Below the pieces are notes generated by a model. That model was not told the origin of the DNA and did not search any database. It worked only from the letters and a program-made list of their open reading frames with translations. Below are positions 2,530-63,303 of a DNA stretch of 64,000 bases, piece after piece. How positions within the stretch are numbered: position 1 is the first letter of the stretch; the number at the start of each line of letters is the position of its first letter. Origin of the DNA: Dictyostelium discoideum (taxonomy: Eukaryota); NCBI GenBank assembly GCA_000004695.1, contig CM000151.3, positions 6,784,001 to 6,848,000 on the forward strand, written 5' to 3'. The translations under genes and the position numbers were made by a program.

Positions 2530-2560
<31 letters not shown>

Positions 2561-3557: not shown

Positions 3558-3558
<1 letters not shown>
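1..3558 (+). CDS. F-box/LRR-repeat protein (FBXL-type), 5'-partial. The reading frame is open from nt 1 through (AAT)n poly-Asn codons, so the N-terminus lies upstream of the window
   Basis: Frame 1 is open from 1 to 3558. There is an F-box-like segment (IPEEILQKIITLL). There are about 16 cysteine-containing FBXL-type LRRs (LxxCxxITDxxL, e.g. LSGCMKITDFAIHELLQNCKQLHTLDLRKCVNLTD). An internal poly-Asn insert (2440-2570) interrupts the LRR array. Stop TAA at 3556-3558. Confidence 0.8.
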
Positions 3559-27290: not shown

Positions 27291-27792
27291 TTAATAATAA
27301 ACCCGTTCTACCCTTTTTAATTTTCATAATAATTATTATTTTAAAAAAATCCTTTTTAGGACCAAAAAAAAAAGTAAAAAAAGTGGAGAATCTATTTACT
27401 AGTATAAATAATTTCTACAATTTAGTTTTTTATTGTCATCAATGCATCCATATTTAGTAAAATGACTTTGTGACTCTGTGCGGAATTCAAACACATAGGT
27501 ACTAATAAAATGATAGAGAAAGGAAATATTTATGGTTTATGTCAATTTTCCGTATCCAGTGTCATATTATAAATCTATCTATGCACTATGACAAATTTGA
27601 TTGAAAAAAAAAAAAATGTTCTGGACCCAGAAATAAAATTATTATTATTGGTTTATTTAAATTGTGTTATAATGTATCAATTTAAGAATTTTCATTAAAA
27701 ATTTATTTATATTTTAAATTGGTTGATAAAAAAAAAAAAAATTGATTTTCTTACGATCGTGGGGTCGCACTCTAAATTTAATAATAATTAAA

Positions 27793-34000: not shown

Positions 34001-34129
34001 GAATGGTTAGGTGAAATTATAATTCACAAAGATTATTCAGATTATAAGGATATTATAAATTACTTATTCAAAAAATATGAACATCAATTGGGGACCACAC
34101 AACTTTTAATTAAAATCTGTACACATTAA
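31001..34129 (+). CDS. intact copy C of the roughly 1,050-aa paralogous family
   Basis: 1042-aa uninterrupted ORF in direct tandem with pseudogene B. An (AAT)n tract lies immediately upstream (30850-30960). Confidence 0.8.
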   Translation: MNNEYNEYSEKLFWKVFKNIYLLNCIFDNKCCYKSKKFKTITSIDSMLKHKQYQILICKLKANENLNFKSTYRIIEKIYEIKDIELFKEINSLLLTNGYQEDVKILFDSDWDIKSADLFDLHLKYHPKELQTYITTSIDSIILYNNPKLIIMVLKILEQYINDSKPFTLTEIERSYFIGEYSEIGKHRDQEIIEEWIKMISNIPISSTSILGTREYKVIRGMDLRWYSKYQKLLPMGHSIKTSFDSKENQRLDIFKNFGQHGVNLSTKSKSASLVSNFCYGFDKSIKEHIEDVKGELGCISTSIDSVLLYFEFYYCNYHVNSKSKSIPTSIQTQIDIIIQNNKPYQTIKQLFQLLVNETKSIVLYARYLKEYNELIETIETCRQIQLLLMYFMTKTYNTNVLMFLLKKDLHIKLTSNYCEPYLDILFGCNQIDKTNIIIFYNTYKSQKSIIAEDIDKKPLDDLISTKDLVDFGNKQLHSILGNESSSKWKEIASNLIDNDKIVTIKDKETIDWLSDIETGGCSILNIRDTLHSKLKQMKLDFSTSELLEYARIKFKQVIPILDSNKKLPSIHILRTHDDIVSLINRLNESNFIDNENLFKYYMIQLIQFGSRNSNKYQRSICDNVGEIDLVLETMVEHFNIEEYSQGAYIQVHDDFNKYKIPTQQIINLSKIKVNVNHFPNATSYLLQTFIKLLNFDGTKFLLDNSNGKKLLFNEKAFKDRFHNRIYISKYSYKGLIDFIQYLIDKFLEGPLSFTNLLLILNFLYLKLIRVNNLTIDQIKTAYQLISNYIEINRSKLTSYYYLKTLSPIIASCITVCEDPTGEYPTSGSKRERPFLNYDIDTSVYTFEYIFSNRTNDDLNKFIDSTIMDIVKDSYNVGMFSKMLDNNNPRITLFLHYLEMELEKRKTNQIKEPFLNYQIFKLIIKTFDIESFIKFDNLLQQNEFHIIRENHNVVNGEQENANDSRDGEQNDISDHGEHENLTIKELFCNGEKPLLSSNMVEWLGEIIIHKDYSDYKDIINYLFKKYEHQLGTTQLLIKICTH

Positions 34130-35662: not shown

Positions 35663-38600
35663 TTATAAATCATTCATCATAATAAAACCTTTTTTCTCTA
35701 AATTTAGTTTTTGTAAAGATAAATTATCAGTATTAAATAACCAACTATTTAAAGATACAATTATATAAGGTAATAAAGCAATTGATGGAGCAATAATTAA
35801 AAGTAGCCAAAAGGTTGGTAAAGCATAGAGTTCAAAGATGATATGGGTTGCATCAGCTTCTACGTATCTACCGAGTACACTATACAACATTACAAATAGG
35901 AAAGTGGAGACAACACTAATGGATACGGCTAAAATGGTTTGACGAGTCCAATAACGAGTGATGAAACTAATTTGTAAATTGACAGTGACTACCAAATAAA
36001 TGTAGGCAGCAGTACCAATGGACCAAAGACCAAGAGTTTTACCACCTTCAATGGTTGAAGTATTCATTACGAAAAAGGTTACAAAGAAAATAGTTGCTGA
36101 TTGCCACATACCAATGAAAACCCACCAAATAAATTTCCAAGTTGAAAATGGTGAATTTGATTGACAAACCCTATAGAGATATGGTTTGTTCAATAGGTCA
36201 TCCTCTTTGGTGTCTTGATCGAATGTACCTAAAAATATGACAGGTAATGATGTGAACAATGCATTGTAAAGAGTGAAAAGGAAATCGAAATAAATCATTT
36301 GACCACTAAAGCCTGAAAAGAAACCAAACCAAAATTGACTAATTGAGAGTGCAATATTCTTTGAAAATGAATAAAGGATTAACTTTGTCATTCTCTTGTA
36401 ACTACGATTGCCATGCACTAAAATTAAACGACGAAGCATTGAAAAGTTTGCAATTGCAAAATCGGAAGCCAATACCGCTTGCATACCCTCCCTACCACTA
36501 ATACCAACACCAACATGAGCCTTTTGAATCATTGGTACATCGTTTGCACCATCACCAATTGACATTGTAATTGCACCATCACCAAAGAGAAAACTTCTTT
36601 CCGCTACCAAATTTACAACCTTTGCTTTTTGGGAAGGTGAACAACGACAACAAACTACACTTTCACAAGTTTTGGCGACTTGTAAAAAGAAATAACGTAA
36701 ATCAGGCTCCAATGCCAAAGCCAATGTACTACCATCGATAATGATGGCGATATGTTTTTGACTTGCATTAACTGCTGGTGCTGACATTCCATTGGATTTA
36801 TTTAATAGATTTGGTGCATCTGAGGGCTCTAATCTTAATTTACTTGCAACTTTTTCCAAAAGTTTTGAAAGATACTTTACAGAACCCCATCTACCAGACA
36901 TATCATTGAAATGATGTAATCTCTTCTCGTTGGATATTGTTAACAATCTTTTCATCAATGCTTGTTTATTAGATTCATTCAATATAATCAACTCCATTTC
37001 TTCATTGATTACAGCGGATGAAGTTGAAATACTAATTGCCGTCTCTTGTTTATCACCTGTTAACACCCAAACTTTAATACCAGCCTCTCTTAGAGCCGAT
37101 ATTGTCTCTGGTACATGATCTTGTAATCTATCTTCAATACCTGTTGAACCAATTAATAATAGATCCTTTTCTATAAGTTCACAAGCTGCATCTACTTTCT
37201 CTGCTTTCTTCACCAAAGAGATTGAAGCCTCTTGATGAATTTTATTCCATGCTATATATTCCTCATGTTCAATGGTTCTAACTGACATACATAGTGTACG
37301 TAAACCTGAACATGCAAATTCACTTAGATGTTTCTCTGTTGATTGTAATATACCAACACAATGATCTGTATTCTTTTTTGCACGTTCAAATATTACAGAA
37401 TCTGCACCCTTACAATAAATTTTAATTTGATTCTTTTGATTCTTTACAATTACTGACATTCTCTTACGATAACTATTAAATTCCAATACATTTAATAATT
37501 CAAATCTTTCCTCTCTACCATGTACTGATATTGTTATGATATTATCCTCTCTTGACTTTAAAATGAAACCATATCTTGCTGCTGTTAATGTTAATGATTC
37601 TTCATCTGGTGATGCTGCTTGATATTTTGGTATTACACTACAACCACTATTTGTACCACCATTGAAATTATGATGACTCTTTGAATTATCATGATTCATC
37701 ATTAAATCATCAATTTCTTTATTCTTTTCAATTAATACAGTATTACAAATTGCTAAACATGTTAAAAATTCTTTAATATATTCAGTTTGATCCGATAATA
37801 TTGGTATTGAAATCTCTGGTTGTACTGGAATACCTAATGGATTTAATGAAGATGATGCATCACCACCACTACCACCACTACCACCACTACCACTACCACC
37901 ACCACTTAAACCATTACTTTGTCTTAGGTAAGAACCATTTGAACTATCTGATAATTGATTTTTAATAAATAATCTTAAATCTTGTAAACTTGAATCTTCA
38001 GGACCATAAACTTGACCACCGATTGTACAACGATTGAAAACCATTTCATTACAAGTTAAAGTACCAGTTTTATCAGAGAATAAATATTGAATTTGACCCA
38101 ATTCTTCATTGATATTTGTATTTCTAGCTTGTGCTGGTGTATCGGTTGATTCATCATACATCTCCAAATCACTATCGATGAAATGTGCATTTGATACTCT
38201 AATCATTTCCATAGAGACATACATTGACAATGGAATCAATGTATTGTAGAGTATAACATAACTTACATAGATGAAATCTTCGGTTTGTTCTGGATCATAA
38301 TCGATATACCATGGCTTTGCATCTTTATCATCCTCCAAATGCCATCTATTATGACCAATGGAACATATGATACAAATGATGGTTTGTAAAAGGAAAAGTA
38401 TTAAAAGTTTATTATTTACACCACGTTCAACTGATGAACGTTTTTGACTTGCTTTTGATGCATTCTTTTCAATCTTCGTATCTACACCACTATAGGTAAC
38501 CACACCAATCACCCAATCGGTATTACGAAGTTTAGTACCTCTCAATAGTAGTTGATCAATTGAAACTGGTACATAATTCGTAGTTGGTACAACAGTTGAA

Positions 38601-40881
38601 TCACCAATATTTGAACGTTCAAAACCTTTTAAAATTGTCAATACACCATCGAATGAATAAATGTCATTATTTGGTCCTTCATAATCAACTTTACAACTGA
38701 AATCATCTAAATCCTTTGCACCCTTTATCCATTGACATTTTGAAATGGATGATTTCGCTTTTAGATTGGTCTCGCCATCAAGATTTGCAGTCTCTAAATA
38801 TGCTCTACCATCGGATCTTGAAGAGCTTAAACAAATGATATCGGCTGGTAATGATTCACCATTCTTTACATAAATTATATCACCAACTTTAATATCTTCC
38901 CAATGACAACTTTGAAATACTCCAACCTTACTATAATCATTATCAGGTACCATTGGTATATTCTTTTCAGTTTGAATGTATTGTTGTTTAATTGAACCGA
39001 AAAAATTACCTATTCTACTAATGAAACCATTGAATCCACTTTGTCGTCTTTTTAAATCTTCTTTGCTAGCAGTTGGTGAAATAATATAAAATGGTGGTCT
39101 ATAAATTGAAGTTTCTCTACCATTAATCTCTTTATCTTGTTTATGACGTTTTAAATCCTCTGCCAACTCTTTAAATGATGTTACCGCTATAACCACCAAT
39201 AATGGTGTTAGCGAAGATACTGGTCCAACTGGTGAGAATGAAAACATACAAAGTATAACAATTGCCAATGTATAAAGATTTGCTAATCTTGAGAATTGAT
39301 AAAATATTACCTTTGGTATAAATGTAAAAACATTATATTTACTTGTAATAACTTGATTAGTTTTCATAGATAATAATTGTGATTTATCTGTTGAGGTAGC
39401 AACTGAACTTGTTATTTGTTCATTATTATTATTATTATGATTATTATTTAATCCATTATTATTATTGTTATTATTAATAATGTTATTATCATTATTATTA
39501 TAATTATTATTATTATGACCAGATGAGAATGGTGATTTTGGGAATAACTTTTTTAATTTAAAATATTGTTTAATCTTTTCACCTGTTGTTAATTTCTTTG
39601 TAATTGAAGTTGTGGTTGCAATTGCTTTCTTTACATCTGAACCATAGAAAAATATACATCTACTTGCTTTTGCTTGTGAACTACTACTTGATGCTGATTC
39701 ATCTCTTTCAATATCGAAACTACCAACCAAACTTGCAGTCAATAGAATCAATGAATTATCAGATGGATCTTGTAATGATACAACCGATACAAATAACTTC
39801 AAACCTAATAATATACCACCAATTATATTCAATATACATAATAATGAAACAAATAAAACATAACTCCAAAATGCTAATAACTCCTCTGTAAATGGTCTTG
39901 AACTTTGTGTATGTGCATATGTAAACGTCATAATTAAATCTAAAATCGTTGTGCTAAAACATCCAATAACATATAATAATATTAAATATGGTTTCAATCT
40001 TTTTACACCATATGATCCAATTACTAAAAATAATGCTATTTAAATATAATAATAAAAATATAAAAAATATTAATTAATACCCCTGTTTATCTCTGTCTGT
40101 CTGTCTGTTTGTTTGTTGTTTGTTTGTTTGTTTGTTTGTTTGTTTGTTTGTTTGTTTGTTTGTTTGTTTGTTAAATATATATATATAATCTTACCTTGAA
40201 AGAAAATTAATAACATAACATAATATTTCTCTAAAACGAAAATTGGTAAAGCTCTAATTAAATTACCAACGGTTTGAACTGTAATTATATGAGTTAACCA
40301 TTGTCTACCAACTCTCAATGCAATTGCATCTCTTTTTTTTCTTTGAACTGCACTATGTGATGCTTTTAAGATTGCAAGATATTGATCTGGTACTTGTGAT
40401 TGATGTTGTTTATGAATAAATACTTTTGAATTTCTTTGATTGTCGTCATTATTATCTTCATTATTATTATTATTATTATCATCATCATCATCATTATCTT
40501 TAATTATTATTGGTGTATTACTTTTATTTAAATCTGATTCTTTATCTTGTTTTTTCTTAAATATATTTCTTTTACTCTTTTTTTTATATTTCTTTTTATT
40601 ATTACTGTTATTATTATTATTATTACTATTATTATTCTCGCTATATACATCATTACCATTATTATTATTATTACTATTTGTATTGTTATAACTATTATTA
40701 CTATTAGAATTATTATTGGTATATGGATAATTAATATGATATGGTGAATTTGGTAATGAGTTTAATGGTACAGATGAAAATAGTTGTGAACTTTCAGTTA
40801 AATGAGGATTTATATACCCATTATTATTATTATTATTATTTTGTTGTTGGTGTTGTTGATGTTGTTGTTGATATTGTTGAT

Positions 40882-48639: not shown

Positions 48640-50218
48640 ATGATAAAAGTAAGTTTATAATTATAATTATTTTTTTTAATTGTTTTTTTTTTTTTTATTT
48701 TTTTTTTATTCTTATAATTTTTTTTTAATTTATTTAAAAATAATATTTATTAATTAATTATTTTAAAAGGGATCAAGTATGGTTTTAAAAGAGCTCTCAA
48801 GTGGAGCTTTAAGAAGAGGATCAAAGGAATTTATTTCAAATGTACAAAGAAGAAATTCAATTTGTGGACCATGTATTGGACTCGATTCAAAGCAATCACT
48901 AACTTCAACATCTAAAATGTTTTCGGATGATTCAATTGGTTCAATTTTAGAAAATTCGACAAATATTCAAGATTTTCAAGATAGTTTTCAAAAACCTCAA
49001 CCATTTCCAGTAAGAAATAATTCAATTTCTGGAATTATAAATTCAATAAAGAATGAAAAAATAAAAAATTTAAATCCATTAACTTTTCAAAATAATGGAA
49101 TTGTAAATAATGGAATGTACGATATGAATAGAAGATTCTCAATTGACCCTCTTTCAATGAGTAATTATTATTATTATTATTATTATTATTTATTTCTTAA
49201 TTCTATTATTTTCATTTCTCCATTATTTGTTAATTAATTCCAAAAATTTCTTTCTTTCCTTTATTTCTTTTTATTTTTTTTAAAAGGTTCAAAAAGAGAG
49301 ACTAATAATAATAATAATTTATTTCCAAATGGAAATTTAGGAAAATTTAAATCTTTTAATCTTGGTAAGTAATTTTTTTTTTATTTTTTTTATTTTTTTT
49401 TTATTTTTTTTTTTTTTTAAAAAATTAATAATAATTAATTTTTTTTTTAAATAAATATATCAATAGATGAAAGTTTTATTGAATTAGAAGCAGAATCAAC
49501 ATTTAATAATGTTTGGGGTGAATTAGTAACAAAATATGGATTAGAGAATTTAGAATTCCCAAAAGAGATAACATTTTTAGCAGGAGCACCTGGATCAGGT
49601 AAAGGTACGAATACAGAAGTTTTAATGAATGCATTAGGAGTTAATGAAGAACCAATTGTGATGAGCTCATTATTGAATTCACCAGAATGTATTGAAATAA
49701 AGAAACAAGGTGGATTGGTTAATGATAAAGTTGTATTAGAACTTTTATTGAAAAAATTAAGTAAACCCGATTATTTATGTGAAAATCAAGGTCCAAAGAA
49801 AGGTGTTATCATCGATGGTTTCCCACGTTCTGCCAAACAAGTTAAATTTGTAGAATTACTCTTTGATAAACTAGTTAAAATTAGAAAAACAATTAATCCA
49901 AACGCTTCTTTACCACGTTTTAGAATTAGTGTTTTACATGTAAGTGAAGAAGAATCTGTAAAGAGACAATTATCTCGTGGAGAATATGCACTTAAAGAGA
50001 ATCAAATTAGAAGAGATAAAAACTTACCACTTTTAGAGATTAGAGATACCGATATCGACCCAAATGCCTCTAAAAAACGTTATACCTTGTATCAAGAACA
50101 ATTCAATCATTTAAAATCTTTAGAAGATAAATTCGATTTTGATTTAATTGATGCAAATGGTACTTTAAAAGATGTACAAAATACAATTAAAACCTCTTAT
50201 GCTAAATTACAACCACAC

Positions 50219-50224
<6 letters not shown>
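48640..50224 (+). CDS. adenylate-kinase-family (NMP kinase) protein with an N-terminal extension of about 160 aa; join(48640..48648,48770..49160,49277..49354,49467..50224), about 410 aa
   Basis: Possible micro-exon ATGATAAAA|GTAAGT. Exon 2 is (GSS)MVLKELSSGALRRGSKEF... Exon 3 is a short Asn-rich segment. Exon 4 carries the NMP-kinase P-loop FLAGAPGSGKGT, GLVNDKVV, the IIDGFPR motif and a LID-like region. Donors are ATG A|GTAATT and CTT G|GTAAGT. Acceptors are TTTAAAAG and ATCAATAG. Confidence 0.65.
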
Positions 50225-50249
<25 letters not shown>

Positions 50250-50383
50250 TAAATTATATACACATTAAAATTTTTTACCGATAAATATATTAAAATTAAT
50301 TATTCTATTTTATTCTTTATTATTTTTACAAAGTTAATTTCGAATAATATTGATTTAATGCGTATTGGTTTTTACTAATAGTT

Positions 50384-53300
50384 CTAACCAAATTTTTGAT
50401 TTAAAAGTTTTAATTTATAGTAAATTACATATGGTTCCAATTGGTGTTTATATTTATCAAATAAGTGATTTATAATATCTTGATAATCTGAATAATCTTT
50501 GTATATAATTGTACCAAACCATTCAACCATATTAGTTGATAATGGTTTGCCATATTCATCCAATTGTTTGGTTATTGAATTTACATGTTCACCATCATCA
50601 TTTGCATCCTCTTGTTCACCATTAACAACATTATGATTCTCTCTTTTTAAATGGATTTCATATTGTTGTAATAAATTATCTAATTTAATAAATGATTCTA
50701 AATCAAATGTTTTAATTATTAGCTTCAATAGTTGATAATCTAAAAATGGTTCTTTGACTTCATTTGTCTTTCTAAATTTTAATTCAATTTCGAAATAATG
50801 TAAAAATAAATTAATTCTTGGATTATTATTATATAACATTTTGGGAAATATTTCCATATTAAAATCATTTTTTGTAATTTCCATGACTGTTGAATCGATA
50901 AATTGGTTTAAATCGTTATTATTTCTCTTTGTAAATATGTTTTCGAATGTATATACTGATATATCTATATGATAATATAATAATGGTCTTTTAAAACCAG
51001 TTAAAGGATCTACACTAACGGTAATACATGATGCAATAATTGGTGATAGTGTTTTTAAATAATAGTATGAATTATGTTTTGAACTAGCTATTTTAATATA
51101 GTTTGATATTAATTGATAAGCTGTTTTGATTTGATCAATTGTTAAATTATTGACTCTAATTAACTTTAAAAATAAGTAATTCAATATCAATGATAAATTT
51201 GATAATGATAATTGACCATCTTTGAATTTATCGATTAAAAATTGAATCATTTCAATTAAATCTTTATATAAATATTTGCATGTATAGATTCTATCTTGAA
51301 AACGATCTTTAAATGCTTCTTCTAATTCTAAATCTTTACCATTTAAATTATCAAGAATAAACTGAACACCTTCAAAATTTAAAAGTTCTACAAATATATG
51401 AAATAAATAAGAAGTTACATTTGGAAAGTGATTGAAATTGACTTTAATTTTAGTGAGATTGATTATTTGGCATGTTTGTTGAGTTGGTATTTTGAATTCT
51501 TTGAATTTTTCATTTTCATGATAACTTTCTGAATGGTCCCAAACCTCTCCTTCGTCGGTGTATGAATTAGTATAAAACCTTTTAACCACAAAATTGAAAA
51601 GTTTTATTACAAAATCACCCCAATCATCATAATCTGAATAAAACTCATCAATAGAATCACAAATTAATCTTAGGTATTTAATTGAATTTCTTGAACCAAA
51701 TTGAATTATTTGAATCATATAATATTTAAATAAATCTTCACTGTTATTAAAGTTTGATTGGTTTAAACCGTTTATTAGTGATACAATATCATCATGAGTA
51801 CGTAAAATGTGAATATTACACAACTCTTTATTTGAATCTAAAATTGGAATTACTTGCTTAAATTTGATTCTTGCATATTCTAATAATTCTGATGTACTAA
51901 AATCAAGTTTCATTTGTTTTAATTTTGAATGTAAAGCATTTCTTATATTTAAAATACTACAACCACCACCTGTTTCTATATCTGATAACCAATCGATTGT
52001 TTCTTTATCTTTAATTGTAACAATCATATCATTATCAATTAGATTTGATGTAATTTCTTTCCATTTCGATGATGATTTACTACATAAAATGGAATTCAAC
52101 TGTTTATCACCTAAAGCTATATCCTCCTGCTCCTTTGTCGGTATTATATTATTTAATAGCTTTTCATCAATATTTTCTATAATGATTGATTTTTGTGATA
52201 TATAGATTTTGTTGAATTTATTAATATTGTTTTTATTAATTTGATTATCTTTGAATAAAATATTGAGAAATGATCTACTAATACTGGCTAAATCTGATTT
52301 TGTTAAAATAATTTTTATATGTTTTTTCAATAGAAACTTTAATATATTGGTGTTATAGGTTTTTGTCATGAAATAGAGTAATACTACCATCATTTCTTCG
52401 TCAGGTTCAATATTATCAATTGGTTCATTATATTCTTTTAAATAACATGCATATAAAACAATTGATTCAGTTTCATTGATTAATAGTTGAAATAGTTGTT
52501 TAATTGATTGATATAGCGTACAACGTCTATGTTTATTATTTTGAATTATTATATCAATTTGAGTTTGAATAGATGTCGGTATACTTTTTTTTGATTTACC
52601 TCCATAATAATAGTTGCAGTAATACAATTTAAAATATAATAAAACTGAATTAATTGATGTAGAGATATACTCTAATTCTCCTTTAACATCTTTTATGTGC
52701 TCATTAATACATTTATCAAATCCATAACAAAAACTTGAAACCATATCTTTATGACGAGCTGACTCTCTAATTTTTTCAAATCTTGGTAGTAATGGTTTGT
52801 GTGGTATTTTAACATTATGACCTAAATTTTCTGCTGGATAATAAAATGACGTTCGAATATTATTATAACCTAATGATAGTAATTTTTGAAATTTCAAATA
52901 CCAACGTACATTCACATTTATACCTGTTCTTGAAAATGTCTGAAGATCATATAGATCTCTAAATATTGATGTTGGTGATATTGGAATATTCAATATTATT
53001 TTAATCTTTTCTTTAATTTCTTCATGATTGTCAAGATCTTCAAAGCCATTACATGAAATACAGTCCATAATGAAATAATTTCTTTCGATTTTTGTTAAAG
53101 TGAATGGTTTATTATCATTGAGGTATTGTTCATAATAATCTAAAACTCTCATTAACAATTTTGGGTGATTAAGTCGAAAGATTGATTTTATCATTGATGG
53201 AATATAGGTTTGTAATTCTTCTGGATGATATTTTAAATGAATATCAAATAAATCTACTGATTTTATACCCCAAATCTTATCGAATAAAATTTTAACATCA

Positions 53301-53590
53301 CCTCTGTAACCTTTAAAAAGTAATAATGAATATATCTCTTTGAATACTTCTATATCTTTTATTTCATTGATTTTAGCATTTCCATATGAACTCTTAAAAT
53401 TTAAAATTTCATCTGCTTTTAATTTACATATCAAAAGTTGATATTGTTTATGTTTTAACATTGAATATATTGATGTAATAGTTTTAAATTTTTTACTTTT
53501 ATGACAACATTTATTTTTTAATATATAATTTAATAAATATTTATTTTTAAAAACTTTCCAAAATAATCTTTCATTATATTCATTATTCAT
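50384..53590 (-). CDS. intact copy D of the roughly 1,050-aa paralogous family
   Basis: 1068-aa uninterrupted ORF. It is about 92% identical to copy E outside two hypervariable patches. Confidence 0.8.
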   Translation of the reverse strand: MNNEYNERLFWKVFKNKYLLNYILKNKCCHKSKKFKTITSIYSMLKHKQYQLLICKLKADEILNFKSSYGNAKINEIKDIEVFKEIYSLLLFKGYRGDVKILFDKIWGIKSVDLFDIHLKYHPEELQTYIPSMIKSIFRLNHPKLLMRVLDYYEQYLNDNKPFTLTKIERNYFIMDCISCNGFEDLDNHEEIKEKIKIILNIPISPTSIFRDLYDLQTFSRTGINVNVRWYLKFQKLLSLGYNNIRTSFYYPAENLGHNVKIPHKPLLPRFEKIRESARHKDMVSSFCYGFDKCINEHIKDVKGELEYISTSINSVLLYFKLYYCNYYYGGKSKKSIPTSIQTQIDIIIQNNKHRRCTLYQSIKQLFQLLINETESIVLYACYLKEYNEPIDNIEPDEEMMVVLLYFMTKTYNTNILKFLLKKHIKIILTKSDLASISRSFLNILFKDNQINKNNINKFNKIYISQKSIIIENIDEKLLNNIIPTKEQEDIALGDKQLNSILCSKSSSKWKEITSNLIDNDMIVTIKDKETIDWLSDIETGGGCSILNIRNALHSKLKQMKLDFSTSELLEYARIKFKQVIPILDSNKELCNIHILRTHDDIVSLINGLNQSNFNNSEDLFKYYMIQIIQFGSRNSIKYLRLICDSIDEFYSDYDDWGDFVIKLFNFVVKRFYTNSYTDEGEVWDHSESYHENEKFKEFKIPTQQTCQIINLTKIKVNFNHFPNVTSYLFHIFVELLNFEGVQFILDNLNGKDLELEEAFKDRFQDRIYTCKYLYKDLIEMIQFLIDKFKDGQLSLSNLSLILNYLFLKLIRVNNLTIDQIKTAYQLISNYIKIASSKHNSYYYLKTLSPIIASCITVSVDPLTGFKRPLLYYHIDISVYTFENIFTKRNNNDLNQFIDSTVMEITKNDFNMEIFPKMLYNNNPRINLFLHYFEIELKFRKTNEVKEPFLDYQLLKLIIKTFDLESFIKLDNLLQQYEIHLKRENHNVVNGEQEDANDDGEHVNSITKQLDEYGKPLSTNMVEWFGTIIYKDYSDYQDIINHLFDKYKHQLEPYVIYYKLKLLNQKFG

Positions 53591-53849
53591 TATAATTAAT
53601 TATTAATTTATTATTTATTATTTCAACGTTTTATGAAATATCTTTTGAAAAAAAAAAAAAAAAAAAAAAAAAAAGAATTTTTTTTAAAAAATTAAAAATA
53701 TTTTTTGGAAATTTTTTTTTTGAAAAAAAAAAAGAAATTAAAAAAAAAATTTTTTTTATTAAATTTTTTTCTAAAAAAGAAATTTCTAAAAATAACTTAA
53801 TGTGAGAATTAATATATTTTTTTAAATTTGAAAATTCACCCTTTTTTTA

Positions 53850-53880
<31 letters not shown>

Positions 53881-53992
53881 TCCTTCCTTGTGAGTTTTTT
53901 TTATAACCAAAAAAATAATTTTTAAAAAAATTAAATTACCTTAAATTTGAAATCTTTTTTTATAAAATGTTTGTTTTAAGAATTTTTTTCCG

Positions 53993-54033
<41 letters not shown>

Positions 54034-54100
54034 CAATAGTTAGTTATTTATTTTTTTTTTTTTTTTTTTTTTTATTAATCAAATTTATTTTTTATTCTTT

Positions 54101-54117
<17 letters not shown>

Positions 54118-54131
<14 letters not shown>

Positions 54132-54206
54132 TTATTAATTTATTAATTTGAATCCATATTAATTTCAGCAGCCAAAAAAAACTAAATAAAAAAATAAATA
54201 AAAAAA

Positions 54207-54237
<31 letters not shown>

Positions 54238-54250
54238 AAAAATAAACAAA

Positions 54251-54289
<39 letters not shown>

Positions 54290-54300
54290 ATATATAAACC
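54118..54300. repeat. (TTTA)n / (AAAT)n tetranucleotide microsatellites in the D-E spacer
   Basis: There is atttatttattt... at 54118-54150 and aaataaataaat... at 54190-54300. A further (AAATAAAT)n lies at 54640-54720. Confidence 0.9.
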
Positions 54301-54616
54301 AAATTAACAAAAAAAAAAAAAAAAATAAAATAAAATAAAGGATAAAAAAAAAAAAAAAATTCAAATGTATAAACATTAAAAAGTGGTCATCATCACCATC
54401 ATATTTTTCTTCTTATTTTTCTTATCAAATTATTACAATCAATTAAGAAAGATAAAGAGAAAAATCTTGTTTTGATCAAATTTTAAGGTTGGTGAAAAGT
54501 AATTTTTTGCTGCACTGGTTGGTTGATGGCACAGTATGAGTAGTTATTAGTTGGTGCACCATCAACTACTCATGTTGAATCACCAGGCTCACCTACTCAA
54601 GCTGCACCATAATAAT

Positions 54617-54715
<99 letters not shown>

Positions 54716-55122
54716 AAAGAATAAATAAATAAATAAAAAACAAATAAAACTAGTTTTAATAAATCTAAAACTTTGTAAATGTGTTTTGAAAAAAAAAAAA
54801 AAAATTTTGGTTTAAAATTCAAAAAAAGAATTATCTTCTCTAAAAACGAAACCCTTTTCAAATGATAATTGTTGAACACCACTACTACAATCACTACCAT
54901 GAATCTATTAATTTTATTTTATTTTATTTTTTAAACAAATCAATTTTTAAATTATAAATTAAAAAAAAAAAAAAAAAGATTTTAAATAATTAAATTAGAT
55001 ATTTTATTATTATAATTTTTATTTATTTTTTTATTTTAATTTAATGTTTAATTATTTTTTTTTATACTTTATTATTTTTAGAAAGTTAATTTCAAATAAT
55101 ACAGATTTAATTTGTATAGGTT

Positions 55123-58100
55123 TTAACTAATAGTCTTAACCAGATTTTGATTTAAAAGTTTTAATTTATAGTAATATATATATGGTTCTAATTGGTGTTT
55201 ATATTTATTAAATAAGTGATTTATAATATCTTGATAATCTGAATAATCTTTGTATATAATTGTACCAAACCATTCAACCATATTAGTTGATAATGGTTTG
55301 CCATATTCATCCAATTGTTTGGTTATTGAATTTACATGTTCACCATCATCATTTGCATCCTCTTGTTCACCATTAACAACATTATGAATATCTCTTCTCA
55401 AATAGATTTCATATTTTTGTAATAAATTATCTAATTTAATAAATGATTCTAAATCAAATGTTTTAATTATTAGCTTCAATAGTTTATAATCTAAAAATGG
55501 TTTTTTGATTTCATTTGTTTTTCTTTTTTCTAATTCCATTTCGAAATAATGTAAAAATAAATTAATTCTTGGATTATTATTATTATTATATAACATTTTG
55601 GAAAATATTTCCATATTAAAACCATCTTTTACAATATCTATGATTGTTGAATCGATAAATTGGTTTAAATCGTTATTATTTCTATTTTTAAATATATTTT
55701 TGAATGTATACACTGATGCATCTATATTATAACCACAGAATGGTGTTCCTTTTTTAAAACCATTTGCAGGATCTTTAATAATTGTAATACATGATTCAAT
55801 AATTGGTGATAATGTTTTTAAATAATAGTATGATGTGTGTTTTGAACTATCTATTTTAATATAGTTTGATATTAATTGATGAGCTGTTTTGATTTGATCA
55901 ATTGTTAAATTATTGACTCTAATTAACTTTAAAAATAAGTAATTCAATATCAATGATAAATTTGATAATGATAATTGACCATCTTTGAATTTATCGATTA
56001 AAAATTGAATCATTTCAATTAAATCTTTATATAAATATTTGCATGTATAGATTCTATCATGAAAACCATCTTGAAATGGTTCTGTATTTAATTCTAAATG
56101 TTTACCATTTAAATTATCAAGAATAAATTGAACACCTTCAAAATTTAAAAGTTTGATAAATGTTTGAAATAAATTAGAGGTTTCATATTGAAAGAGATTA
56201 ACTTTAACTTTAATTTTAGTAAGATTGATTATTTGACATGTTTGTTGAGTTGGTATTTTGTATTTGTTGAATTCTTCATTTTGATAATAACCAAGTGAAT
56301 CCTCTGAAACATCTGCATTATAGGAGTATGAGTTTGTAAAAAACTTAATAACCTTATAATCGAAAATACTAACTACTAAACCACCCAAACCATCATAACC
56401 TGAATAAAATTCGTCAGTGGAATCACAAATTAATCTTAGATATTTAATTGAATTTCTTGAACCAAATTGAATTAGTTGAATCATATAATATTTAAATAAA
56501 TTTTCATTATCATTAAAGTTTGATTGGTTTAAACGATTGATTAATGATACAATATCATCATGAGTACGTAAAATGTGAATATTACACAACTCTTTATTTG
56601 AATCTAAAATTGGAATTACTTGCTTAAATTTGATTCTTGCATATTCTAATAATTCTGATGTACTAAAATCAAGTTTCATTTGTTTTAATTTTGAATGTAA
56701 AGCATTTCTTATATTTAAAATACTACAACCACCACCTGTTTCTATATCTGATAACCAATCGATTGTTTCTTTATCTTTAATTGTAACAATCTTATCATTA
56801 TCAATTAGATTTGATGTAATTTCTTTCCATTTCGATGATGATTTACTACATAAAATGGAATTCAACTGTTTATCACCTAAAGCTATATCCTCCTGCTCCT
56901 TTTTCGATTTTATATTATTTAATAGCCTTTCATCAATATTTTCTATAATGATTGATTTTTGTGATATGTAGATTTTGTTGAATTTATTAATATTGTTTTT
57001 ATTAATTTGATTATCTTTGAATAAAATATTGAGAAATGATCTACTAATACTGGCTAATTCTGATTTTTTTAAATTGATTTTTATATGTTTTTTCAATAGA
57101 AACTTTAATATATTGGTGTTATAGGTTTTTGTCATGAAATAGAGTAATACTATTATCATTTCTTCATCAGGTTCAATATTATCAATTGGTTCATTATATT
57201 CTTTTAAATAACATGCATATAAAACAATTGATTCAGTTTCATTGATTAATAGTTGAAATAATTGTTTAATTGATTGATATAGCGTACAACGTCTATGTTT
57301 ATTATTTTGAATTATTATATCAATTTGAGTTTGAATAGATGTTGGTATACTTTTTGATTTACCTCCATAATAATAGTTGCAATAATATAATTTAAAATAT
57401 AATAAAACTGAATTAATTGATGTAGAGATATACTCTAATTCTCCTTTAACATCTTCTATGTGCTCCTTAATACATTTATCAAATCCATAACAAAAACTTG
57501 AAACCATATCTTTATGACGAACTGACTCTCTAATTTTTTCAAATTTTGGTAGTAATGGTTTGTGTGGTATTTTAATATTGTGACCTAAATTTTCTGCTGG
57601 ATAATAAAATGACGTTCGAATATTATTAAAACCTAATGATAGTAATTTTTGAAATTTCAAATACCAACGTACATTCACATTTGTATCTGTTCTTGAAAAT
57701 ATCTCAAGATCACATAGATCTCTAAATATTGATGTTGTTGAAATTGGAATATTCAATATTATTTTAATCTTTTCTTTAATTTCTTCATGATTGTCAAGAT
57801 CTTCAAAGCCATTACATGAAATACAGTCCATAATGAAATAATTTCTTTCGATTTTTGTTAAAGTGAATGGTTTATTATCATTGAGGTATTGTTCATAATA
57901 ATCTAAAACTCTCATTAACAATTTTGGGTGATTAAGTCGAAAGATTGATTTTATCATTGATGGAATATAGGTTTGTAATTCTTCTGGATGATATTTTAAA
58001 TGAATATCAAATAAATCTACTGATTTTATGCCCCAGATAGTATCAAATAAATTTTTAACATCTCGATAACCTTTAAAAAGTAATAATGAATATATCTCTT

Positions 58101-58353
58101 TGAATACTTCTATATCTTTTATTTGATTCATGATTTTATCATTTTCATATGCACTCTTTAAGTACAAATTTTCATTTACTTTTAATTTATATATCAACAG
58201 TTGATATTGTTTATGTTTTAACATTGAACCTATTGATGTAATAGTTTTAAATTTTTTACTTTTATGACAACATTTATTTTTTAATATATTATTTAATAAA
58301 TATAAATTTTTAAAAACTTTCCAAAATAATCTTTCATTGTATTCATTATTCAT
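55123..58353 (-). CDS. intact copy E of the roughly 1,050-aa paralogous family
   Basis: 1076-aa uninterrupted ORF in direct tandem with D (1.5-kb spacer) and followed by truncated copy F. Confidence 0.8.
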   Translation of the reverse strand: MNNEYNERLFWKVFKNLYLLNNILKNKCCHKSKKFKTITSIGSMLKHKQYQLLIYKLKVNENLYLKSAYENDKIMNQIKDIEVFKEIYSLLLFKGYRDVKNLFDTIWGIKSVDLFDIHLKYHPEELQTYIPSMIKSIFRLNHPKLLMRVLDYYEQYLNDNKPFTLTKIERNYFIMDCISCNGFEDLDNHEEIKEKIKIILNIPISTTSIFRDLCDLEIFSRTDTNVNVRWYLKFQKLLSLGFNNIRTSFYYPAENLGHNIKIPHKPLLPKFEKIRESVRHKDMVSSFCYGFDKCIKEHIEDVKGELEYISTSINSVLLYFKLYYCNYYYGGKSKSIPTSIQTQIDIIIQNNKHRRCTLYQSIKQLFQLLINETESIVLYACYLKEYNEPIDNIEPDEEMIIVLLYFMTKTYNTNILKFLLKKHIKINLKKSELASISRSFLNILFKDNQINKNNINKFNKIYISQKSIIIENIDERLLNNIKSKKEQEDIALGDKQLNSILCSKSSSKWKEITSNLIDNDKIVTIKDKETIDWLSDIETGGGCSILNIRNALHSKLKQMKLDFSTSELLEYARIKFKQVIPILDSNKELCNIHILRTHDDIVSLINRLNQSNFNDNENLFKYYMIQLIQFGSRNSIKYLRLICDSTDEFYSGYDGLGGLVVSIFDYKVIKFFTNSYSYNADVSEDSLGYYQNEEFNKYKIPTQQTCQIINLTKIKVKVNLFQYETSNLFQTFIKLLNFEGVQFILDNLNGKHLELNTEPFQDGFHDRIYTCKYLYKDLIEMIQFLIDKFKDGQLSLSNLSLILNYLFLKLIRVNNLTIDQIKTAHQLISNYIKIDSSKHTSYYYLKTLSPIIESCITIIKDPANGFKKGTPFCGYNIDASVYTFKNIFKNRNNNDLNQFIDSTIIDIVKDGFNMEIFSKMLYNNNNNPRINLFLHYFEMELEKRKTNEIKKPFLDYKLLKLIIKTFDLESFIKLDNLLQKYEIYLRRDIHNVVNGEQEDANDDGEHVNSITKQLDEYGKPLSTNMVEWFGTIIYKDYSDYQDIINHLFNKYKHQLEPYIYYYKLKLLNQNLVKTIS

Positions 58354-58489
58354 TATAATTAATTTTTTTTACTTATTATTGTTTGTTGTTTGTGGGTTTT
58401 TTGAAAAAAAAAAAAAAAAAAAAAAAAAAAGATAAAAAAACGAAAAAAATGTTGCCTGTGCGATTTTAATTGTTCCTTTATTTAAACCA

Positions 58490-58572
58490 TTATAAAAAAG
58501 TTAATTTATTAAAAATAAATAAATAAATAAATAATATCTCAAATCTACTCTCCCTTAGGTGCTGAAAAATAG

Positions 58573-58610
<38 letters not shown>

Positions 58611-59354
58611 AAGAAAGAGAAATTATATGTAATCACTGTTGTGTATTCTTTAGTGCAATAAAATGATGTTTGAGTATCATTAAATTCAAAAGGTATTAAT
58701 TTTTGATATTGTAGATACCAAAGTACATCCACACTTGTATCTACACTTGGAACTATTTTTTCTGAATCTTCAAATATTGAGGTTGACGATATTGGAATAT
58801 TCGATATTATTTTCATCCTTTCTTTAATTTCTTCAATATCGCATCGATATCCTTTTAAAGTTAAATATTTCATAATGAAATAATTTCTTTCATTTTTACT
58901 ATGGTTTATTATGATTGGTGGACTCTTTAAAAAATTTTAAAACCTTTATTATTAATTTTGGATGATTATATAGGATGATTGAATCTATATATCCTGTATT
59001 AATATGGGTTTGTAATTTTTCTGGATGATATTTTAAATGAAAATCAAATAAATCTACCGATTTTGTACCCCAAATCCTATCGAATAAAATAGGATGATAA
59101 CTATCATCTTGATAACCTTTAAAAAGTAATAATGAATATATCTCTTTGAATACTTCTATATCTTTTATTTCATTAATGATTTTATTATTTCTATATGCAC
59201 CCTTAAAATTTATCAACAGTTGATATTGTTTATGTTTTAACATTGAATCTATTGGTGTGATGTTTTTAAATTTTTTACTTTTATGACAACATTTATTTTA
59301 TAATGTATAAATTTAATAAATATTTATTTTTAAAAACTTTCCAAAATAATGATT
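58490..59354 (-). pseudogene. truncated/degraded N-terminal remnant (copy F) of the paralogous family
   Basis: Fragments 58899-59243 (MLKHKQYQLLI...DIEVFKEIYSLLLFKGYQDD...HPKLIIKVLKFF...NKP) and 58490-58873 (...ISNIPISSTSIF...VDVLWYLQYQKLIPFEF...) are collinear with residues about 40-260 of copies D/E. The start codon region is decayed (ataatgaatataatgaatcat). There are frameshifts between the fragments. Nothing corresponds to the C-terminal 800 aa. Confidence 0.7.
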
Positions 59355-59514
59355 CATTATATTCATTATAATTATTTTTTTTGTTTCAAAATTATCAATT
59401 AAAATTAAATGAATAATCTTTGATATAAATTATAACTTTATTTTTATTAAAAAAAAAAATAAAAAATAATAAAAAAAATTTTAAAGTTAAATAGAATTAA
59501 TTTTATTTTTACTG

Positions 59515-59729: not shown

Positions 59730-59824
59730 CAGTAAAAACGAGTCTTTTTTTTTTTTAATTTTTTTTTTTTTCGTTTTTTCACAAAACTTCCTTCTCCATC
59801 AATATCAAAAATAATAAAAGTAAA

Positions 59825-60218
59825 ATGGGTAAATTTACATCATCAAAAAAAACCTATAGAGTTGACCCATTAGGATTGAATTTACCAAATAATGGTTTTG
59901 ACAATGAAGAACTCGATACAGCAGATAATCTTAGTGGTATAGTTGCAGGTGGTGTTGTTGGAGCAACAACCGATGGTAATTTAATTATGAATGAAGATTT
60001 ATCACAATCAATTACAGATCCAATCAAATTATTAGATTTAATTTCAAGTTCAGAAACTGTTGAAAGAGATTTTGCATTTAGAACAATCTCTGAATTCGTT
60101 TTAGAGAATGAATCTTTTACTCAAGAATTAATTAAACCTGAAAATATTCGTAAAATTATTACTCGTTTAGTTGAACCAGATGTTCAAATTCGTGTTTCTG
60201 TAATTGGTACTTTTAGGT

Positions 60219-60256
<38 letters not shown>

Positions 60257-62333
60257 TAAATTGTTAATATGACTAATTTTTTAATTAAATATATTTATAT
60301 ACAGAAATTTAACAGTTGTCAAAGAGGATATTTGTGAAACATTAATTAATTTAGATATTCTTACCCCATTATTATCAAATTTTGTTCAAGGTATTAATTT
60401 TATTAAAACATTAAATGAAAAAGATATGAAACAACAAAAATCAATTGAAACTCAACATGTTTTAATTCAAGCAGTTGCATTAATTAATAATTTATGGTAA
60501 TTATTATTTTTAATATATATATTATTATTATATATTATTTATTTCATTTATTAATTTTTAATTTTTTTTTTATTTTTTTAGTGAAGTTTCAGACAAAGGA
60601 TTTTCAATTGTATCAAAAGAATGTAAAAGTATTTTGACAACATTATTTGAAGTTTTAATAAATAATAGTATTTTTATGCCAGAGTTAATAATGAATATAT
60701 CAGAATTTTTAACAGTTGTAACAGATGATAATAATGAATTAAATGCAACCATAAATAATGAATTAATGTTACAATTATTTAATATCATTAAAGATTCAAC
60801 AACAATGAATATTAGATTAAAGACATTAATTTCAACCATCATTTTAAATATTGGTCAATTATATAATAAAGAATTGGTAATTCAAAATATTACACCAATC
60901 TTATTAAGTACTTTCCAATTTAATTCAATTTCAACTTTAAATTCAGATTTATTAAAATCATTAAATAGTGCAAAAGATGCAAAATTAAAATATGATCAAT
61001 TAGTTGCTGAACAAACAGATGATAATAATAATAATAATAATGATGAAAAGATGGGTATGGATGAAAATAGTAATAATAATAATAATGATAATAATATAGA
61101 AGAACCAATTGATGAATCAAAACCAATTACTTCAACAGTTGATGAAACTATTAAAAAAACACCAAAAAATATAATTAAAAATGCAGCTGCTGATTTAGTT
61201 CAAGAATGTGAAAAACAATTTAAAAATCAAAATGAAGAATGGAAAGATTCATTACTCGCTCAACAATCTGCTATTGAATTGTTTGTAAATATTGTATCAG
61301 ATGCTCAACAACAACAACCAGATGACTCAAATCCATATGATGATGATGATGATAAATTCTTGGATATTGAAGATGGTGAAACTGAACAATCTCAACAAAT
61401 TTTATCAAATATTTCTAAATTTATAATTTCAACTCCATTATGTCAATATGTAAATATTAATATATATATATATATATATTATATAGTTATTTTATTTTTA
61501 TTTTCTAATTTTCCTTTTTTTTTTTTTTTTTTTTTTTATTCAGTTAATTGAATTATTAAATAGTATAGTTAATTTTGATTCAACTGAATTTGGAAAATTA
61601 AATATTGAACTTTTACCAAATATTTCATCAATTAGAATTCTTCAAAAAAGAGCAATGACATGTTTATCAAATCTTTTAATTACTTTTATTCCAAAAGAAG
61701 AAAATGTTCAAAAGATTCTTTGGGATCTTTTAATGAAAATTGCAAATAAATCATTTACAACAAATGATATTGATATCATTGAAATGACAACAAGTTCACT
61801 TTGGTCAATTATGAGAACAAATTCAAATATTGGTTTTGTAAGTTTTCTTTCTTTTTAAAAAATATTTATTTAAATTATTATAAATATTAACTTTTTTTCT
61901 TTTTTTTATTTTATATATATATATATAGACAACAGAAATTGAAATTAAAAATTTAGTAGAATTAGCAATTAAATCACCAAATTCAATTAAAACCAATTTA
62001 ATTGGTATTATTGGTATTGCAGGTCAAAAACCATATTGTCAAAATATATTAAAAGAGGTTGCAATGTTTTTATTACAATGTTTAAACAAAGATTTACCAG
62101 CAGATATTATTTCAGAATCTTTAAATTCAATTTTTGATATTTATGCTGAACCAAATGTAAACAATATCGTTAAAGAAGTTTCATTAATTCAACATTTAGA
62201 TGCATTTGTTCCAATAATTAGAAATAAAATTAAAACTGATAAAAAGAAATTAGATAGAGCTTTATTAGATCGTTTAGATGAATCCAGAATTAATTTATCA
62301 AGATTTATTACTTATAAAAAATCTCAAAAATAA
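59825..62333 (+). CDS. ARM/HEAT-repeat protein, possibly a HEATR3/Syo1 (symportin) homolog; join(59825..60216,60305..60496,60572..61449,61544..61837,61929..62333), about 720 aa
   Basis: Five exons joined in frame. Donors are AG|GTAAAT, TG|GTAATT, TAT|GTAAAT and TTT|GTAAGT. Acceptors are TATACAG, TTTTTTAG, TTATTCAG and TATATAG. The basic N-terminus MGKFTSSKKTYRVDPLGL resembles the Syo1/HEATR3 N-terminal tail (recalled from memory as MGKSKKRS...). The remainder is helical-repeat-like with an acidic insert. The exon structure is firm. The family assignment is tentative. Confidence 0.45.
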
Positions 62334-62541: not shown

Positions 62542-63303
62542 TTATTCTTCTTGAGATTCTTCTTCACATAAAGTGAATTCATCTTCATTCCAAAAACCTT
62601 TAATGTGGAATTTAAATTCGGAAATTTCATGATTGAAAAGTTTTAAAAGTTGAGATTGTTCTGGTGTGACAGCAACACCGGCTTCACATAAAGTATATTC
62701 TCTATCAACAAAAATAACACCATTCTTTAAAGTTGTTGGTAAACCTAAACCTCTTAAATAAGTTTCCATTGAATGAGTCATACCAACGATTGGACCTTCT
62801 TTAATTGTGATGGTTTCTTCTGAAACAAAACCTGATCTTGGGAAATCTTTTTCTGAATAATTTGTAAAATATTCAAATACTTTATCTTTTGGTTCATTTG
62901 TAAAGAATAAACCACATTCACCTTCAAGATGCTTTTAAAAAAAAAAAAAATAAAATAAAAATAAAAATAAAAGATTAGAATTAAAAATAAATTAGAATAA
63001 AATATAAATAAAAATACATACTTCAGTAAGTTTATGTAAATTTGGTTTTAATTCATCTTCTTCACTTTTACCTAAACCAACGGATAAAACTTTATTTTTA
63101 CCAAAAAGGAATTTACTTGTTGACCATTCTGTTCTAACTGATTTTAATTTATTATTTCTCATATTTTCAAACGTAAACAAATAAATAAATTTATATTGAT
63201 CAACGATATCTTTGATGGTGCTGACTAACTTCTTTTTCTTTTCACCTGGATTCTTTGTAACTTTAGTCATATTAACGACAACATTTCTCTTTGATTTTAC
63301 CAT
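62542..63303 (-). CDS. mRNA turnover protein 4 (MRT4, uL10/P0-like ribosome assembly factor) homolog; join(62542..62931,63022..63303), about 223 aa
   Basis: Exon 1 is MVKSKRNVVVNMTKVTKNPGEKKKKLVSTIKDIVDQYKFIYLFTFENMRNNKLKSVRTEWSTSKFLFGKNKVLSVGLG...LHKLTE, ending at GAA|GTATGT. The acceptor is TTTTAAAAG. Exon 2 is HLEGECGLFFTNEPKDKVFEYF...EGPIVGMTHSMETYLRGLGLPTTLKNGVIFVDREYTLCEAGVAVTPEQSQLLKLF..., collinear with yeast/human MRT4. Confidence 0.75.

Follow-up and report, generated by a model that had tools for sequence, protein, structure and literature searches.

A tandem array of two intact genes and a remnant

A 64,000-nucleotide stretch of Dictyostelium discoideum AX4 chromosome 2 (contig CM000151.3, positions 6,784,001 to 6,848,000; hereafter the window) carries on its minus strand a head-to-tail array of two closely alike genes, D and E, together with a truncated third copy, F, and these three copies and the family to which they belong are the subject of this analysis (Table 1). 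Both D and E are intact, single uninterrupted open reading frames (ORFs), and the ORF of D matches DDB_G0276409 at 100% identity. Mean GC content across the window is about 22%, intergenic tracts being rich in long homopolymers, and spacing within the array measures 1.53 kilobases (kb) between the E and D ORFs (53591-55122) and 0.14 kb between E and the last ORF of F (0.29 kb from the end of F homology), which bears out the head-to-tail, minus-strand arrangement with spacers of 0.15 and 1.5 kb described in an earlier note on this DNA. Most of the E-D spacer is A/T homopolymer or (AAAT)n repeat; about 115 nucleotides (nt) at each of its ends, and no more, are kept in other strains, whose spacers are much longer (1.7-4.2 kb).

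Self-comparison by blastn revealed a D/E duplicated block with 92.7% DNA identity over 3400 nt, in which homology reaches only about 85 nt upstream of each ATG and about 90 nt past each stop, identity collapsing beyond these points. The encoded proteins are 87.6% identical, the roughly 92% that had been put forward as amino-acid identity being the DNA figure, and across the whole genes synonymous divergence (dS) is 0.088, non-synonymous divergence (dN) 0.060 and dN/dS 0.68. These differences are far from evenly spread, as the longest identical runs (287, 247, 178 and 177 nt) are separated by 50-nt windows holding 16-18 differences. Among 10,000 permutations the longest identical run was 91 nt on average and 250 nt at most (p<1e-4 for the observed 287), and differences per 50 nt gave a variance-to-mean ratio of 4.7, or 3.3 at third codon positions alone, so that the clustering goes beyond chance and includes silent sites. 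The main divergent patches lie at codons ~645-765 and ~840-940; lesser ones occur at codons ~55-105 and right at the C-terminus. The sharp patches of the earlier note are thus real, and the uniform divergence that it named as telling against its view is not seen, but there are more than two patches. Its pair of "identical" antisense pseudo-ORFs (51864-52205 and 56630-56971) proved near-identical, differing at 6 of 342 nt and at 5 amino acids, a likeness that is a by-product of the identity of the genes they overlie.

Since near-identical repeats may be collapsed or cross-polished, and since the AX4 reference is a Sanger assembly of some age from a genome very rich in AT and in repeats, the mosaic could in principle have been made by assembly. 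We consider this practically negligible, because the independent assembly GCA_054883475.1 (locus L003) carries both coding sequences without a single difference and with F, E and D in the same order, so that the structure is not an artefact. The exact 1076-residue product of E had no entry in a 15-billion-protein collection; the only close entry (P0007, 1101 residues), from the annotation of another assembly, has its last codons spliced away into a downstream exon, which leaves the E gene model uncertain at its 3' end.

Orthologs of both genes place the duplication before the lineage split

We compared the AX4 locus with the syntenic loci of GCA_054859385.1 (ACTFIR), GCA_054859355.1 (ACTFIW), GCA_054883475.1 (ACTFIT), GCA_054859205.1 (ACTFIY) and GCA_054859235.1 (ACTFIZ), ACTFIY and ACTFIZ being labelled cf. 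discoideum; these assemblies most probably stem from Holland et al., PNAS 2025 (PMC12745789, PRJNA1300491). The ACTFIT locus matches AX4 at 99.3% over 19 kb. Exons of flanking single-copy genes, window 48779-50224 (plus strand) among them, gave dS of 0.04-0.11 between AX4 and ACTFIR/ACTFIW and of 0.09-0.15 between AX4 and ACTFIY, with dN about 0.01, by which measure ACTFIR and ACTFIW, both named D. discoideum, are lineages well diverged from AX4 and not near-identical strains.

Over the whole gene, AX4 D is nearest to ACTFIR_c (95%) and ACTFIW_c (94%), its orthologs lying at L001:10001-13210 and L002:10001-13207 (94-95% nt identity). AX4 E is nearest to ACTFIR_b (96%; L001:2614-5844), ACTFIW_b (94%; L002:4982-8257) and ACTFIY_b (93%; L004:10001-13228), as compared with 93% between AX4 D and E themselves. 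The order of E then D and the conserved ends of the E-D spacer are common to AX4, ACTFIR and ACTFIW, and one cf. discoideum assembly likewise has an E-type copy followed by a diverged copy in the D position. Orthologs of D and of E differ from AX4 by dS of 0.09-0.11 and dN of 0.034-0.040, and with dN of only about 0.01 in the flanking genes this means that the family's proteins evolve 3-4 times faster than their neighbours. Taken together, these sequence comparisons indicate that the D/E duplication is older than the divergence of the D. discoideum and cf. discoideum lineages sampled here.

This is contrary to the very recent duplication that had been proposed for the pair, with patches arising since then by rapid positive selection or by escape from homogenisation. 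Such a history would fit the 92.7% DNA identity, the long identical runs and a between-type dN/dS of about 0.7-1.4 in the patches; it is nonetheless extremely improbable, given that both types have orthologs elsewhere which group by type at 99-100% bootstrap within the patches, that D-E synonymous divergence in the first patch, at 0.29, is 2-3 times the value between strains (orthologs give 0.09-0.13), and that the E-D arrangement with its conserved spacer ends is found in two other assemblies.

Homogenised segments alternate with type-specific blocks

We classified variable sites in quartets made of AX4 D and E and the two corresponding copies of a comparison strain, a concerted site being one at which AX4 D and E have one base in common and the comparison-strain copies have another. 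Against ACTFIR (copies c and b), 100 sites followed orthology, 31 were concerted and 5 showed the third pattern, and against ACTFIW the counts were 92, 25 and 5. Equal numbers of concerted and third-pattern sites are expected without exchange, so the large excess of the former argues for exchange between D and E. The site classes are, moreover, spatially clustered along the gene, with runs of concerted sites in nt 311-1850 of D.

Neighbour-joining trees of gene segments with bootstrap support changed topology in step with this clustering. The AX4 copies are sisters at 100% bootstrap across nt 311-1850 of D and at 84% across nt 2296-2500. In the longer of these segments the D-E p-distance is 0.027, as against 0.044 from D and 0.036 from E to their orthologs, and across codons 104-617 the D-E dS of 0.056 compares with 0.125 and 0.079 for orthologs. 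A scan in 300-nt sliding windows returned 14 windows in which the paralog was closer, 11 in which the ortholog was closer and 5 that were mixed, in the same places as the trees, with almost all windows starting at nt 301-1501 being paralog-closer.

Two blocks show the opposite topology, the copies separating into D-type and E-type clades across lineages (Table 1). In block 1 the D-E p-distance is 0.188, and tblastn found its D-type form in L001/L002 (88-93%) and its E-type form in L001/L002/L004/L011 (81-93%). This block coincides with an indel-rich family region at residues 651-700 that has low predicted local distance difference test (pLDDT) scores, and its dN/dS is 0.26-0.31 within types and 0.7-1.0 between types, values that point to purifying selection within each type. 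Block 2 has a D-E p-distance of 0.132 (dN 0.156, dS 0.109), its divergence being mostly non-synonymous, with dN/dS of 1.0-1.4 between types and about 0.6 within; across both blocks the within-type values span 0.26-0.66, on small counts. The earlier suggestion that the patches are selected to differ outruns these figures, as a between-type dN/dS of about 0.7-1.4 on small counts does not demonstrate positive selection. What keeps the blocks apart may be their own divergence (19% and 13%, with indels), by hindering heteroduplex formation, or selection for distinct types, or the two together.

Gene conversion within an old pair as the best explanation

With a probability of roughly 0.85, we interpret D and E as an old tandem pair that has been partly homogenised by interlocus gene conversion, within a birth-and-death array of an orphan family of the discoideum clade. 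Since the lineages split, repeated non-allelic homologous exchange, mainly short-tract interlocus conversion, would have overwritten most of the D/E coding sequence, especially codons ~105-620, ~765-835 and ~950-1050, and so made the AX4 copies more alike in these segments than either is to its own ortholog. Codons ~644-763 and ~837-940 would not have been overwritten and would have kept their old D-type and E-type character. Unequal exchanges, favoured by this same recombination-prone layout, would also expand, contract, truncate and fuse copies, leaving 2-6 full-length copies per lineage. We infer that each tract was made by conversion rather than by another kind of exchange. The earlier proposal that the pair is homogenised by non-allelic exchange while specific blocks stay distinct is thereby upheld, both by tree topology that flips from segment to segment and by the 100/31/5 quartet counts.

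Could old duplicates have acquired the mosaic with no exchange at all, purifying selection holding some segments alike and loops being relaxed? The coincidence of the biggest patch with a low-pLDDT region that varies across the family, and a correlation of rho -0.36 between D/E differences and family conservation, are what such a history would predict. Yet synonymous and third-position differences are equally patchy, D-E dS falls below ortholog dS in the similar segments, concerted sites outnumber third-pattern sites 31 to 5, and AX4 D and E are sisters at 100% bootstrap over nt 311-1850. Residues 251-280 and 981-1020, which are hypervariable across the family, are almost identical between D and E, so rate variation alone cannot explain the mosaic, and on this evidence we regard an origin without exchange as very improbable.

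Exchange might instead have been a single event, an unequal crossover or a re-duplication that made chimeric AX4 genes, in place of repeated short-tract conversion. Unequal exchange is clearly at work in the family, which has 1.5-unit fusions, internal deletions and copy-number differences; one crossover cannot, however, produce at least three homogenised segments alternating with at least three type-specific segments in one gene, and the E-D order and spacer ends are kept in other strains. A single event is thus improbable.

Several observations weigh against our interpretation of conversion in an old pair. The D-E dS of block 2 (0.109) is no higher than that of orthologs (0.06-0.10), and this block may be distinct through selection at the amino-acid level rather than through long escape from conversion. 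Boundaries of the tree segments were picked after the site patterns had been seen, though the blind sliding-window scan agrees with them. The dN/dS values, which were obtained by the Nei-Gojobori method, are rough on small windows in a genome of 22% GC. Only three or four diverged lineages could be compared, two of them (ACTFIR and ACTFIW) close relatives, and these do not settle the direction of tracts or the number of events. Finally, the b/c pairs within ACTFIR and within ACTFIW are never sisters in the trees, so that the clearest record of homogenisation is that on the AX4 side or in the common ancestor of ACTFIR and ACTFIW. A reading of conversion direction from sites that are type-diagnostic in ACTFIR and ACTFIW was dropped, as the shared recent ancestry of these two lets lineage substitutions mimic conversion.

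Copy number and structure of the array across lineages

In every discoideum-clade assembly the array sits, in the same orientation, between a SYO1-like tetratricopeptide-repeat (TPR) gene and a gene with an adenylate kinase (ADK) domain. Read from the SYO1 side to the ADK side, AX4 and ACTFIT have pseudogene F, E and D. ACTFIR has a pseudogene, a 1058-residue copy, a second pseudogene, a 1056-residue copy, the E-type copy, the D-type copy and a 1026-residue copy, and ACTFIW has copies of 1058, 1038 and 1025 residues, the E-type copy (with an in-frame stop), the D-type copy and a further copy of 1038 residues. ACTFIY holds a pseudogene, one copy and the E-type copy, and ACTFIZ a partial copy, copies of 1073 and 1077 residues and then an E-type and a D-position copy that are annotated as one 2046-residue gene. 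Full-length copies in the five lineages thus number 2, 5, 6, 2 and 4-5, besides truncated or internally deleted ones, and this range of 2 to 6 across the assemblies bears out the copy-number variation anticipated for the array.

The stop in the ACTFIW E-type ortholog (L002:4982-8257) falls at codon 312, and the annotation spans it with an intron; the copy is possibly a very young pseudogene, or the stop a sequencing error. Outside the window, DDB_G0276559 (P0002) and its counterparts P0005, P0006 and P0019 are single ORFs made of one full unit and a partial second unit. The partial unit always begins near residue 492, and these in-frame 1.5-unit fusions suggest a module boundary that is also a recurrent point of unequal exchange.

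Loci outside the clade were reached through a search with the mrt4 homolog together with the cluster members, a search with adenylate kinase exons having given almost nothing. No array copy lies between the SYO1-like and ADK genes in D. purpureum or D. firmibasis, where the two genes are adjacent, and the D. dimigraforme interval holds only an unrelated predicted ORF and no array copy. In D. citrinum, a relic of about 180 nt between the two genes (L008:13953-14131) matches family residues ~776-844 with a tblastn E-value of 5e-7 and is matched by six different family members. The array therefore predates the discoideum/citrinum split; it was almost erased in D. citrinum and has been expanding and contracting within the discoideum clade.

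F aligns with D codons ~9-254 across three reading frames; it contains an in-frame stop and its start region is 7 nt shorter, in keeping with its earlier description as an N-terminal stretch of roughly 260 codons with a decayed start, and its 114-residue ORF is annotated as ACTFIT_004373. The further view of F as a degraded third unit alongside D and E did not survive comparison with other strains, as its DNA identity is 78% to D and likewise to E, and 86-89% to the SYO1-proximal copies L005:831-1509, L005:3544-4305 and L006:1281-2053 in ACTFIR and ACTFIW. On these identities F is the stump of a SYO1-proximal paralog type, different from and older than D/E. Relative to ACTFIR and ACTFIW, the AX4/AX2 lineage is without the rest of the F gene, without two to three further copies and without the copy that lies between D and the ADK gene in those strains, and F would have been left when the SYO1-proximal copy lost everything beyond codon ~254 in that lineage.

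An orphan protein family

Searches with the family placed it in the discoideum clade. Pfam gave no significant match for D or E (best E-values 0.04-0.09, far below the cut-offs), and a word-indexed search across 5.8 billion proteins brought up 31 relatives. Every one came from D. discoideum or "Dictyostelium cf. discoideum", was named hypothetical and had a blank precomputed Pfam entry. A 23-member profile run against 1.84 billion representative sequences gave 21 matches, of which those checked were from the discoideum clade save for proteins sharing an N-terminal motif. This motif of about 60 residues (D residues ~7-65; window ~53396-53572, minus strand) reads LFWKVFxNKYLxNxI ... SMLKHKQYQLLICKLK, and recurs in short D. 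purpureum fragments and in DDB_G0273369/DDB_G0273683; no other part of the protein has relatives beyond the discoideum clade. The protein database does contain entries from D. citrinum, D. dimigraforme and D. firmibasis, and their absence from the matches means that these species have no annotated family member there. A literature search found no mention of DDB_G0276409, DDB_G0276559, DDB_G0276403, DDB_G0276401, DDB_G0271218 or DDB_G0271262, and the literature on gene conversion and concerted evolution in Dictyostelium yielded nothing on the family.

A profile search of the PDB with the family gave 0 matches. The AlphaFold2 model of the D protein is poor (pLDDT 57.5) and predicts an entirely alpha-helical chain of about 1070 residues; with this low-confidence model as query, the top Foldseek matches were CAND1, karyopherins and FANCD2, none an informative fold match. 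D residues ~501-650 (window ~51641-52090, minus strand) form the family's most conserved block (0.83-0.98 among 18 paralogs) and have a pLDDT of only 26-44; they may have a fold beyond the reach of the shallow alignment or be a conserved stretch that needs a partner in order to fold. Neither D nor E has a hydrophobic segment, the maximum 19-residue Kyte-Doolittle hydropathy being 1.35 with no window above 1.6, and our best structural guess is that the family proteins are soluble alpha-helical scaffolds. A transposon origin was considered and rejected: no transposase, reverse transcriptase or integrase domain was found in D or E (terminal repeats were not specifically searched for), and the copies occupy the same syntenic interval in all discoideum-clade assemblies.

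The locus and its neighbours

Table 1. Positions in the window of the array, its segments and the genes that bound it.
Feature	Position	Strand	Basis or remark
Gene D (DDB_G0276409), 1068 residues; D-type copy adjoining the adenylate kinase gene in AX4	50384..53590	-	ORF and translation
Gene E, intact ORF of 1076 residues; E-type copy	55123..58353	-	ORF
D repeat unit, full extent	50296..53676	-	self-blastn; pairs with 55048-58432
E repeat unit, full extent	55048..58432	-	self-blastn; pairs with 50296-53676
E-D spacer between repeat units	53677..55047	.	13% GC, homopolymer-rich, (AAAT)n-rich
F, frameshifted truncated pseudogene	58646..59375	-	tblastn in three frames, sequence inspection
Homogenised segment, D nt 311-1850	51741..53280; E counterpart ~56507-58043	-	AX4 D and E sister, 100% bootstrap
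Type block 1, D nt 1930-2290, codons ~644-763	51301..51661; E counterpart 56077-56436	-	D-type and E-type clades, 100% bootstrap each
Type block 2, D nt 2510-2820, codons ~837-940	50771..51081; E counterpart ~55522-55844	-	type clades, 99-100% bootstrap
Adenylate-kinase-domain gene, conserved boundary on the D side	48650..50224 (approximate)	+	Pfam ADK domain; synteny in all loci
SYO1-like TPR gene, conserved boundary on the F side	59806..62314 (approximate)	+	Pfam TPR_SYO1 on the orthologous gene in related loci; blastn to the window
mrt4, just beyond the SYO1-like gene	62542-63303	-	gene model

The family comprises about seven intact genes in AX4, at least 4 of them inside the window. One, DDB_G0276401 (5174-8248, plus strand), is a divergent member with 51% amino-acid identity to D, and unrelated genes separate it from the other copies. 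A second head-to-tail pair lies at 27773-30591 and 31001-34129, both on the plus strand; its first copy is frameshifted (tblastn in three frames) and 90.7% identical in DNA to the intact downstream DDB_G0276403 (31001-34129), so this is a D/E-like pair with one copy already dead. The ordinary neighbours at 331-3558 (plus) and 8443-11040, 11915-14515 and 35663-39997 (minus) encode a leucine-rich-repeat protein, a villin/gelsolin-repeat protein with a headpiece, a metallo-beta-lactamase-fold protein and a P4-type phospholipid flippase. The 64-kb window contains no tRNA genes.

Known systems and significance

Concerted evolution with conversion-resistant blocks is classically seen in duplicated globin genes and in genes of the major histocompatibility complex. 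The D/E mechanism is of this textbook kind, tandem multigene-family evolution by birth and death with interlocus conversion, and would not surprise a specialist; it is the gene family itself that is undescribed. Another such case, tandem and species-specific, is the Drosophila Sdic family (PMC7475035). In common with tandem multigene families at large, the array has head-to-tail paralogs that are closer to each other in some segments and to their orthologs in others, pseudogenised and fused copies, and a copy number that varies by lineage. Nothing essential in the mechanism sets it apart, its differences being an undescribed family and a host that is a haploid social amoeba.

Closer at hand, the tgrB1/tgrC1 allorecognition locus of Dictyostelium shows localised gene gain, loss and fragmentation and intralocus recombination between close isolates, and its products, the Tgr proteins, span the membrane, carry TIG/IPT domains and have been shown to act in recognition (PMC12745789). 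The D/E locus resembles it in belonging to the same organism group and in undergoing local gain, loss and recombination, and is probably seen here in the same assemblies. Unlike the Tgr proteins, D and E have no TIG/IPT Pfam match and no hydrophobic segment, and they lie in a different locus, the SYO1-ADK neighbourhood; nothing in their sequence features is evidence of a Tgr-like recognition role. A further point of comparison is with HEAT/ARM-like alpha-solenoid scaffolds, the low-confidence model being all-alpha over about 1070 residues and its top Foldseek matches being CAND1, karyopherins and FANCD2.

We also weighed a functional reading in which the family takes part in genetic conflict or recognition, for instance in intracellular sensing of self and non-self or of symbionts and pathogens, or as a selfish element, and in which the two blocks would be specificity determinants held as types by selection while the rest is a homogenised scaffold. 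In its logic this would resemble the division into variable and constant regions known from other recognition families. The faster protein evolution (3-4 times), a between-type dN/dS of about 1 in the blocks alongside within-type purifying selection, the quick turnover of copy number and the absence of the array from sister species are all compatible with it, but we think it unlikely.

High identity of neighbouring paralogs is a poor clock. By its overall dS of 0.088 the D/E pair looks young, yet it is older than the split from the cf. discoideum lineages, so that dating it by overall identity would be wrong. Beyond this pair, the comparisons delimit an uncharacterised, taxonomically restricted family, whose copy number changes rapidly at a syntenic site with precise bounds and which can be traced among sequenced species from absence, through a relic, to six copies. 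The array thereby offers a tidy system for studying the birth and death of an orphan-gene family in a haploid, genetically tractable organism.

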